DNA from: Escherichia phage bumzen
Length of the DNA stretch: 64,000 nt
Strand: one strand, 5' to 3'
Sequence record: MN850635.1
The notes under the pieces are model-generated. The model worked only from the letters and a program-made list of their open reading frames with translations, did no database searches and was not told the origin of the DNA. This document shows, piece by piece, positions 11,107 to 13,213 of the stretch. Within the stretch, counting starts at the first letter, position 1; each line of letters opens with the position of its first letter. A program made the translations under genes and the position numbers.

Positions 11107-11224
11107 AATGACCTCAAAGTTATATTAAATTTTGTATTACGTTGAGTATAAAAATAAGCTATAACACCTGACTTGTCAACAGACTTTATAGCTTATTTGG
11201 CAGATTTTTTATAAGGTTACTGCC

Positions 11225-11570
11225 ATCCTTCCATACCAAACCTCACCTGACCTCGCCTAACCCTACCTTACCCCACCATACAGCACCTTATTAAAACACC
11301 CTGTTTAAAGACCTTTTAAAAAGGTAAGTCTCATTTTAATGTAGCTGAGACTAACTACCCATACCTCACCCTACCAGACCCTACCAGACCAGACCTTACC
11401 CTACCAGACCCTACCGAACATCACTTAAAAACCCTATGAGATACTCTATCGAATATAATTTAAAGACTCTTAAGTGATGTAATCGAATTTTAATGTAGCT
11501 CCGATTAACTACCCATACCTCACCTCACCCAACCATACCATGCCTTGCCAGACCGCACCTTACCTCATTA
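11225..11570. repeat. repeat module with three C+A-rich tracts and conserved hairpin-containing units
   Basis: Tracts at ~11225-11290, 11370-11425, 11513-11570; conserved unit aagaccttttaaaaaggtaagtctcattttaatgtagctgagactaactaccc. Confidence 0.7.
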
Positions 11571-11590
11571 AAAGACCCTCTTAAAAGACC

Positions 11591-11618
11591 TTTTAAAAAG
11601 GAGCCTCCGAAGAGGCTA
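11591..11618 (-). terminator. rho-independent terminator (minus strand)
   Basis: agcctc-ttcg-gaggct hairpin followed by T-run on minus strand, just 3' of gene 11629-12069. Confidence 0.5.
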
Positions 11619-11628
11619 CCTAGTCAAC

Positions 11629-12069
11629 TTAGAAAGGTTTTCTACGTTGCTTGTTAATGTTAGCTTTCATAGCAGCTAAATGGTTTTGCTGTTCAATCAG
11701 TCGTGAACGTTCTTGATGACTAAGCGCCATAGTGTTCACATTCTCAATTGCTTGAGTGGCTTGCTTTAAAGCTCGACCAATCTTACCAGACATTTTGCGT
11801 TTTGCAATAGTTGCTTGATGCTTAGGTTCAACCACACGATAACCAACACCCATTGAAGCAACCAGATAAATCTTCTCTTCTTTAAGAAGCTTTTCAATAA
11901 ACTTCTCAAGTCGGTTTAGACGTGTAAGTGCATAAGCCTTCATTTCATCTTCGTACTTAACAATGTCACCTTGATAAGTTGGCTTCACAATACCTAAGAA
12001 GGTATCCATCTCGGAATGTGATACAGTGTCGCCGTAACTAAACTTTGCTGCTAATGCTTTTGTATTCAT
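11629..12069 (-). CDS. hypothetical protein
   Basis: 146 aa ORF. Confidence 0.45.
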   Translation of the reverse strand: MNTKALAAKFSYGDTVSHSEMDTFLGIVKPTYQGDIVKYEDEMKAYALTRLNRLEKFIEKLLKEEKIYLVASMGVGYRVVEPKHQATIAKRKMSGKIGRALKQATQAIENVNTMALSHQERSRLIEQQNHLAAMKANINKQRRKPF

Positions 12070-12071
12070 AA

Positions 12072-12674
12072 TTAAACGTTACCTTCTGAAATAACTTCTA
12101 CAGAAAAACGACCAAAGCGTGGACGCCAATCACCTACACCACAAAGGTTACCAGCATTTTCCAGAACCATCAGAAGTTCCTCTTTGGTGATTTGCTCTTC
12201 ATCAAACATCAAACCAAACTCTACAGACCAGTCACGGAAGATTGGACGGTAGCTCATAACTCGTGCTGTACCAATCTTAACAGACTTAGCATAGATAAAG
12301 TCTGGATTCTTAGCAAGTTCTTGTGGGTTTGCTGGACAGTTCTTGATAGTCATTGGGAAGACTACATCTGTCAGCATAATGGCTCGGTCAATTACCTTAC
12401 CAAGTTTGTTGAGTTTTGCACCAGACTTGATACAAGCCTCAATCATCTCACCGTTCATAACAAAACCAAGTTGCTCATCGTAGTAACAAGAAGTTACCAG
12501 TTGGCTTTCTGCTAAGAGCGCATAGTCTTCGTCAGTCTTTTTACGTTTACTGGACAGAGACTTGTGATATTTTGTCAGAGGGTTTAATGGGTCTGACAAC
12601 GTATCGTTATGGCTCAAGAAAGGACGAGTACCAGTGATTTTGATATTTAGCAGTTTCATAGCATTTAGCTCCAC
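12072..12674 (-). CDS. hypothetical protein
   Basis: 200 aa ORF. Confidence 0.45.
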
Positions 12675-12754
12675 ACTTTAGTTGATTGTTAAGTTGTTTG
12701 TAAAGAACCCTCAACAGAAGACTCTTTAGAAACTTGGTAGATTTTTAACGTGGA

Positions 12755-12965
12755 TACTACCATCCACCCATACCGTGCCACACCACACCGGACCGTACCA
12801 TGCCCAACCCTACTACACCAGACCTTATTAAAAGACCCTCTCCAAAGACCTTTTAAAAAGGTAAGTCTCATTTTAATGTAGCTGAGACTAACTACCCATA
12901 CATTACCGCACCATATTATACCCTACCCCACCATACTTCACTGCACCGAGCCACGCATTACATCA
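12755..12965. repeat. second copy of C+A-rich tract/hairpin repeat module
   Basis: 58 bp identical to 11310-11368 (aaagaccttttaaaaaggtaagtctcattttaatgtagctgagactaactacccatac) flanked by C+A-rich tracts. Confidence 0.7.
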
Positions 12966-13213
12966 CTTAAAAACCCTTTTCAAAGACTCTTAAGTGATGC
13001 TGGTGAGTACCCGTTGGTTTATGATGCTCAGTATACTCACCAAATTTCCTATGTCAACAACTTTTATAAAAAAGTTCTGATAGCTATATGCGTCACGAAA
13101 CAAAAGATTGTAAACAAGACACCCATTGCAAAAGATGTGTCCAAAAGCTTACTTGCAACGTATGACAATACAAAGACAACCAGTATAAATAGAATGACTG
13201 TACTGAACATAGT

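Follow-up and report, generated by a model that had tools for sequence, protein, structure and literature searches.

The stretch of DNA analysed here, 64,000 nucleotides of Escherichia phage bumzen (sequence record MN850635.1, referred to as the window), contains between positions 11107 and 13213 two small genes with repeated non-coding DNA on either side. This region matches Felix O1-like phages (Felixounavirus) at 92–97% over 3 kb, and the genes at about 7.6–18.9 kb are all located on the minus strand, so its features must be read as the reverse complement. In this orientation the locus comprises a gene for a 195 amino acid (aa) protein, vipr, a gene for a 146-aa protein, vap1, and five repeat units of about 89 nt, two of them upstream of vipr and three downstream of vap1, each corresponding to a predicted vrRNA of about 90–100 nt (Table 1). 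We interpret positions 11199–13057 as a VIPR (Viral Interference Programmable Repeat) locus of type II, carried by a Felixounavirus and transcribed from the minus strand, and put the probability of this reading at roughly 95%. VIPR was defined in two bioRxiv preprints (April–June 2026) as a system consisting of Vipr, an early-branching RAMP protein, an accessory vap gene, and vrRNAs made up of 9–16 YNNGG repeats followed by an invariant pseudoknot tail (10.64898/2026.04.26.720920, 10.64898/2026.04.26.720927). The locus belongs to the SUSP1 clade of type II VIPR already described there, and is therefore known, not new. An earlier note on this DNA, made from the sequence alone, had recognised a two-gene cassette between two repeat modules. 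Its observation of the cassette is real and non-random, with repeats indeed present on both sides, although in five units and not two, whereas the functions it proposed for the repeats are wrong.

Table 1. Features of the VIPR locus in the window, listed in the direction of transcription.
Feature	Position	Strand	Description and basis
Promoter	13030..13057	-	Sigma-70-type, TTGACA-16-TATACT; consensus scan, 11/12 matches; kept in Felix O1; just downstream of ligase and a 48-aa open reading frame
5' head hairpin	12961..12999	-	CATCACTTAAG...CTTAAGTGATG, before vrRNA-A; read from sequence
vrRNA-A	12864..12954	-	12 pentamers 12954–12895, pseudoknot tail to 12864, T-run
vrRNA-B	12736..12826	-	12 pentamers 12826–12767; variant tail GTGGAT/ATCCAC + GGTAG/CTACC to 12736
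vipr	12072..12659	-	195-aa RAMP (Cas7-like) protein, predicted GGY binder of vrRNAs; identity to SUSP1 Vipr, profile, model
vap1	11629..12069	-	146-aa VIPR accessory protein; identity to SUSP1 neighbour of vipr (145/146)
Intrinsic-terminator-like hairpin	11602..11617	-	AGCCTC-TTCG-GAGGCT + T-run, after vap1; kept in relatives as head of first downstream unit
vrRNA-C	11481..11566	-	11 pentamers 11566–11512; tail with compensatory stem AATCG/CGATT to 11481
vrRNA-D	11327..11417	-	12 pentamers 11417–11358, tail to 11327; tract quoted in the earlier note
vrRNA-E	11199..11289	-	12 pentamers 11289–11230; variant tail AAGG/CCTT + GGCAG/CTGCC to 11199
AT-rich hairpin	11151..11198	-	13 bp, AAATAAGCTATAA...TTATAGCTTATTT + T-run; closes vrRNA array; kept in Felix O1

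Each unit contains a repeat tract which, on the gene-sense strand, follows a strict 5-nt period of NNGGT (ACCNN on the plus strand) for 11–12 repeats with zero insertions or deletions, and tracts of this type were found nowhere else in the 64 kb. The description of these tracts as rich in C and A and depleted in G and T holds in part, in that on the plus strand C (45–51%) and A (24–28%) dominate and G is scarce (5–12%), but T is not really depleted (13–20%). Together with 12 other genomes of Ounavirinae (Felixounavirus, Mooglevirus and Suspvirus), the window yielded 47 distinct tracts and 561 pentamers for comparison. All 47 tracts keep the NNGGY phase, over 8–18 repeats (mode 12). Across the pentamers, G occupies position 3 in 81% and position 4 in 98% (the latter figure partly built in, as the tract detector demanded the middle G), and T occupies position 5 in 92%. 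The NN dinucleotide is close to random, AAGGT and GAGGT being the commonest pentamers. The sense strand of the tracts is also poor in C (7.6%). Selection acts on the periodic motif, not on a conserved sequence.

The same comparison bears on the proposal that the tracts are loading or recognition sites for a T7 gp4-like primase-helicase, or form part of a replication origin. A gp4-like primase/helicase is encoded by the phage (21333–23324, phrog_239), a strong promoter is located upstream of the tracts, as is also the case at the T7 origin, and tract D contains motifs of the primase type, albeit two GGGTC and one TGGTC where three and one had been counted. However, GGGTC, TGGTC and GTGTC are absent from tracts A, B, C and E, GTC being missing or incidental in these four, and the base following GGT is C in 16% of the 561 pentamers, which equals the background. 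Primase sites would not require a conserved GGY in strict 5-nt phase, and in unrelated phages Vipr homologues are followed by tracts of the same kind. As regards an origin, the GC skew tracks gene orientation and shows no switch here. We consider a role in priming or replication initiation highly improbable.

The tracts end in ATGGG or ATGGA and are followed by one of four tail variants of 34–38 nt, all of which fit a single H-type pseudoknot (stem 1, columns 3–6/17–20; stem 2, columns 9–15/28–34). In nine of its 11 pairs both partners have changed in a compensatory manner, 93% of cells are paired compared with 28–38% when partners are slid, and the covariation score was reached by none of 500 shuffles. 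The identical segment of 58 nt which the earlier note placed on both sides of the genes is the last repeat, tail and T-run of units A and D, and the hairpin AGTCTCA...TGAGACT, present in both copies as it had claimed, is stem 2 of the pseudoknot. The length and number of copies of this segment were correct, but its coordinates were 3–4 nt off, the true positions being 11307–11364 and 12844–12901. A 57-nt pattern from it matched twice with 0 matches expected in shuffles, a looser repeat extends to 203 nt at 77% identity, and in phage wV8 the segment carries the annotation "DR_4". The palindrome ACCTTTTAAAAAGG, likewise present as described, has three copies (at 11311, 11588 and 12848). An Rfam gathering search of the window returned no family and a tRNA scan found none, and the genome papers of Felix O1 and wV8 list other direct repeats, not these tracts.

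The protein encoded by vipr was called mechanically as an open reading frame of 200 aa starting from GTG at 12674. The true start is the ATG at 12659, which all homologues and the SUSP1 protein of solved structure use, and the product is 195 aa long. In this form it is identical to SUSP1 Vipr at 191 of 195 positions (98%), and its family profile matches PDB entry 36pp_D, "SUSP1 Vipr protein", at E = 3e-82. An alignment-based AlphaFold2 model of high confidence (predicted local distance difference test score of 93) was compared with known structures using Foldseek, where the top matches were Csm3/Cas7 subunits of type III and type VII CRISPR effectors (E ~2e-5, template modelling score ~0.5). 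Vipr proteins of the SUSP1 clade are small (~20 kDa) RAMP homologues with a single RRM, a G-loop and a thumb, and a C-terminal G-loop of RAMP type is conserved across the Vipr family. Residues that read the GGY and the skipped base in SUSP1 include H17, K33, E71, M72, R138, C173, D177, W178 and R179 (10.64898/2026.04.26.720920, 10.64898/2026.04.26.720927). All of these published RNA/DNA-contact residues are kept in the window protein by pairwise alignment; residue 175 is V in both SUSP1 and window Vipr, though the preprint names T175. Scans of both window proteins with Pfam, NCBIfam and PADLOC gave nothing meaningful, and these collections hold no model for the Vipr family. The second gene lies 3 nt downstream of vipr, belongs to phrog_5926 and lacks a Pfam match. 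Its product is identical at 145 of 146 positions (99%) to that of the gene adjoining vipr in SUSP1, which is vap1 according to the locus description in the preprints (10.64898/2026.04.26.720920, 10.64898/2026.04.26.720927). Vap1 is predicted to bind DNA and was shown to boost VIPR defence (10.64898/2026.04.26.720920).

Repeat tracts and protein are also associated well outside this group of phages. A blind scan of IMG/VR with the pattern (GGTNN)5GGT returned microsatellites and coding repeats, but also non-coding degenerate tract arrays in unrelated contigs (e.g. L036 and L048), and a tblastn search identified 27 unrelated IMG/VR contigs with a Vipr homologue adjoining tract arrays. As these 27 loci pair the tracts with a Vipr homologue, tracts and protein travel together across distant phages. 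The array in L036 (4600–5060, minus strand) has at least seven units at a pitch of about 65 nt, spaced only by AAGGCTAATGGGT, and that in L048 (2200–3400) has about 14 units spaced by GGAATGGTTTAATGAATTTAATT; both directly follow the Vipr homologue, are far longer than the array in the window and differ from it in architecture.

A number of other candidates for the tracts were rejected. A CRISPR array was discarded, as the variable parts are low-complexity GGY/NN tracts and not spacers, no cas gene is present beyond the RAMP-like vipr, and there is no Rfam match. The association with Vipr is left unexplained by a TRAP-like ring-protein site, a Shine-Dalgarno-like ribosome standby site or sponge, a Rho rut site on the antisense strand, periodic RNA polymerase pause sites, an R-loop origin, decoy sites for BREX (GGTAAG) or EcoP1I (AGACC), and Chi-like sequences or CspE-type GTCTTT sites in the sequences heading the units. 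These ideas were dropped because they are tied to particular NN values or ignore the pyrimidine. The GTCTTT in the unit heads resembles the heptamer of cold-shock proteins (CspE-type).

For SUSP1, small-RNA sequencing, pull-down, green fluorescent protein and plaque assays showed that vrRNAs are expressed, co-purify with Vipr and repress their targets, cryo-electron microscopy showed that the guanines are held individually by the protein, and Vipr was found to act on double-stranded DNA without a protospacer adjacent motif, silencing it without cleavage (10.64898/2026.04.26.720920, 10.64898/2026.04.26.720927). In that system one Vipr protomer binds each repeat and the protomers build a helical filament, which flips out and sequesters each GGY. 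The NN dinucleotides then pair with double-stranded DNA in the form NNxNNx, where the skipped base is usually the wobble position of a codon, and the gapped R-loop triplex formed in this way blocks transcription. By analogy, the window phage would use the same mechanism.

Alternatively, the G-rich transcripts might act by their own structure, as two-tier G-quadruplexes or R-loops forming a regulatory leader of the cassette; the earlier note had raised G-rich RNA structures in general. The GG dinucleotide recurs every 5 nt on a C-poor sense strand downstream of a promoter, and G-rich non-template strands favour R-loops. Structures of this kind do not explain why position 5 is a conserved pyrimidine, why the phase is strict, why the NN dinucleotides are hypervariable and appear to carry information, or why these dinucleotides match satellite genes as described below, and in the solved complex of the 98%-identical system the guanines are individually protein-held. 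We therefore regard an RNA-structure leader as almost certainly not the function of the tracts.

Predicted targets are in line with a VIPR function. The satellite targeted by guides of the SUSP1 clade has a baseplate protein with 72% identity to that of the phage (10.64898/2026.04.26.720920, 10.64898/2026.04.26.720927). As a query we took the gene located after the tape-measure gene in SUSP1. Among 5,426 complete E. coli genomes, 474 (~9%) had a match annotated as a "phage baseplate protein" gene, and ten of these satellite copies were sampled for guide matching. Strains 20KM0223N, TL-14 and MARGA_3 are examples of carriers. The ten satellite islands are about 10–12 kb each and contain recombinases, a replication-initiator-like gene, a tape-measure gene and the baseplate gene; none was found to encode Vipr by tblastn. 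The NN series of 43 guides from the 13 phage genomes compared, leaving out the last dinucleotide at the tail junction, were scanned against these islands. When one base was skipped between dinucleotides, 35 of the 43 guides reached an NN match of at least 80%, compared with none when no base was skipped and two each for skips of 2 and 3 nt. The 1-nt-skip code is reproduced independently by this computation.

Two guides of the window have in-frame matches in satellite genes. Guide A (NN series GT TC GC GA AT GG AG AT AT GC AA AT) matches the satellite tape-measure gene at 21 of 22 NN positions in seven of the ten satellites, with the dinucleotides on codon positions 1–2 (target sequence GTATCCGCTGAAATGGGAAGGATGATTGATAA), a score that none of 200 guide permutations reached (maximum 18). 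Guide E matches a 128-aa hypothetical coding sequence of a satellite in frame at 20/22 (target sequence AAAGCCAATGGCAACAGATACGATAAAGATTT) and another satellite at 19/22, and in a permutation test made at 19/22 this score was reached by 0 of 200. The tape-measure gene and the 128-aa gene are hence the predicted silenced genes, and the guides of this phage would be aimed at a satellite of about 10–12 kb, present in about 9% of complete E. coli genomes, that would carry tape-measure and baseplate genes related to the phage's own; the locus would thereby shield the phage from parasitism by this satellite. No self-target was found in the window under the 1-nt rule (best score 16–17/24), and a blastn search of the vrRNA region against the 5,426 E. 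coli genomes gave no match.

One of the sampled satellites (L139, E. coli GN4751) possesses its own vrRNA at 4056–4125 on the minus strand, with 14 repeats and a covarying tail (GTGG/CCAC + GTCG/CGAC), and thus has a vrRNA without vipr, as does Felix O1 (see below). It was found with a loosened tract detector, which gave mostly noise on chromosomal DNA, and was the only unit kept, for its recognisable tail. The best matches of the L139 guide were only to REP-like host repeats (21–22/26), which we judged uninformative.

Several points weigh against the interpretation of the locus as a functional VIPR system. Guide C matches at 18/20 in an intergenic terminator-like hairpin of the satellite, a score reached by one of 200 permutations, and, being intergenic, this match could be due to chance. 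The match of guide B is weak (18/22) and lies in the tape-measure gene outside the codon register. For guide D, no target above background was detected in the ten satellites, and exact-pattern scans with guides B and D gave 0 matches in each of IMG/VR, GTDB genomes and JGI metagenomes. The NN series of guide D is quasi-repetitive (TC AG CT AG AA CT CT AG CT AG GA AT), and this guide could be a fresh recombination product or be aimed at an unsampled element. Furthermore, only seven of the 12 repeats in vrRNA-A have a perfect GGY, the degenerate ones reading AGT, AGT, AAT, TGT and a terminal GGG. As perturbation of the GGY abolishes silencing in the published system (10.64898/2026.04.26.720920, 10.64898/2026.04.26.720927), guide A, which has the best target, may nonetheless be impaired. 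The 5' ends of the vrRNAs may arise either by promoter or by processing, the mechanism proposed for this phage is wholly carried over from SUSP1, and the sources for VIPR are preprints. The tract of vrRNA-A also occurs in phage wV8 in identical form.

The suggestion that direct repeats mediate gain and loss of the cassette, made in the earlier note together with a call to check relatives for its presence, is borne out, as the cassette is polymorphic at the repeats. In Felix O1 (NC_005282) the spacer between the ligase gene and ORF87 is only 282 nt and holds a single hybrid unit, without vipr, vap1 or the other units. The 5' part of this unit resembles unit A while its last repeats and tail resemble unit E, such that the solo unit (3124–3171) and its tail correspond to window positions ~11199–11241 joined to ~12930–13065. 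It retains 10 repeats, about six of them with a perfect GGY, and an intact tail under the same strong promoter, and had no target in the satellites (13/18). Among Ounavirinae, approximately 117 records carry vipr out of 257 that match the surrounding region, and the number of units varies among relatives from one to five or six. In Felixounavirus LF110P4, the tail of the fourth unit (GGGTAGTTAATCGGAGCTACATTAAAATGAGACTTACC) is chimeric, with the 5' and 3' arms of stem 2 derived from different variants so that the stem cannot form, which looks like a recombination junction between units.

Such polymorphism might suggest that the modules are simply mobile terminator and promoter cassettes, similar to the T4 promoter–stem-loop (PeSL) elements, which would only promote recombination and gene shuffling. 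The terminator-like hairpins and T-runs carried by the units, the variation of the cassette at the repeats and the chimeric tail would all be expected of elements of this type. They do not account for the selection on GGY with free NN, the covariation of the tails, the obligatory link to Vipr or the matches between guides and targets, and the SUSP1 units have already been shown to be transcribed, bound by Vipr and able to silence targets. Recombination is more plausibly a by-product of the repeats, and shuffling elements without a guide function are a very unlikely explanation. Under the VIPR reading, recombination between similar vrRNA units would reshuffle the array and could delete the whole cassette, as in Felix O1.

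The solo unit of Felix O1 could be left over from a deletion, or could serve as an orphan guide or as a decoy. Going beyond the preprints, one could propose jointly that solo vrRNA units are functional, either as orphan guides borrowing the Vipr of a co-infecting phage or as decoys soaking up the Vipr of a rival, and that unequal recombination between units renews guide repertoires. We consider this combined proposal speculative and rather unlikely. A decoy of this kind would be analogous to RNA anti-CRISPRs.

The SUSP1 system shares with the window its gene order, its genomic site between the ligase gene and the ORF87 homologue, the YNNGG repeats with a pseudoknot tail, the tail variants, and the satellite target. 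The two differ in that SUSP1 is a Suspvirus with four vrRNAs (one upstream, three downstream) whereas the window derives from a Felixounavirus with five (two and three), and in that their NN guide sequences are wholly unlike, with the quasi-repetitive guide D of the window lacking an identifiable target. With the Cas7/Csm3 filament of class 1 CRISPR-Cas systems, VIPR has in common the RAMP fold, one protomer per RNA segment, a thumb that breaks the duplex periodically, and a conserved handle that caps a variable guide. However, the period in class 1 CRISPR-Cas is 6 nt, of which five pair, whereas in VIPR it is 5 nt, of which three are sequestered and two pair. VIPR is also phage-encoded, lacks CRISPR repeats, a nuclease and spacers gained through Cas1-Cas2, and silences double-stranded DNA without a protospacer adjacent motif.

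Two further systems are similar in some respects. The trp leader RNA of Bacillus likewise is unstructured, has a conserved triplet every 5 nt (about 11 repeats, with 2-nt spacers that are free to vary) and is recognised by a homo-oligomer, TRAP. The triplet is, however, GAG/UAG, the protein is an 11-mer ring and the outcome is attenuation, in contrast to the GGY, RAMP filament, informative spacers and 8–18 repeats of VIPR. The T4-type PeSL elements are similar as short repeated non-coding modules that flank small phage gene cassettes, with gain and loss by recombination, but they comprise a promoter and stem-loop without a guide function, whereas in the window recombination is secondary to the RNA-guide function.

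With VIPR, a new form of RNA-guided DNA recognition has come to light, which uses a non-contiguous, 2-of-3 code and has been proposed to be ancestral to CRISPR RAMPs. For the window, the annotation gains vipr and vap1 in place of two "hypothetical proteins", and five guide RNAs in place of about 0.9 kb of "non-coding repeats", while the 1-nt-skip rule gains an independent computational replication. The result is also relevant to phage therapy, where roughly half of the candidates from the Felix O1 group possess the locus.

Further features suggest how the locus is expressed. Transcription of the upstream vrRNAs and vipr probably begins at the sigma-70-type promoter, judging from the sequence of the latter. 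An inverted repeat, GGTGAGTA-N24-TACTCACC (13002–13041, minus strand), overlaps the -10 element of this promoter, is kept in Felix O1 and could be an operator. Downstream of the array, a promoter-like TTGACA-17-TATTTT for the next gene sits in the loop of the AT-rich hairpin, which may therefore combine a terminator and a promoter ahead of a secreted-looking 127-aa protein (10723–11106). A head of the same type as that before vrRNA-A precedes vrRNA-D at about 11424–11484, and heads precede many units in relatives; they may be promoters or processing signals.

The unit heads (e.g. 11567–11601, 12827–12863 and 12961–12999) share AAGAGTCTT/AAGGTCTTT...GGGT(C/T)TTTTAA motifs, and a similar sequence, TTAAGTCTCTTCTAAG, was observed in intergenic DNA of a satellite (L138, 8500–8560). 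The shared motif is possibly a promoter or regulator site specific to the phage and also used by the satellite. Between the ligase gene and the VIPR promoter, an open reading frame for a hydrophobic 48-aa protein (phrog_22006; 13064–13210, minus strand) is absent from Felix O1 and present in some relatives, being annotated in VpaE1.

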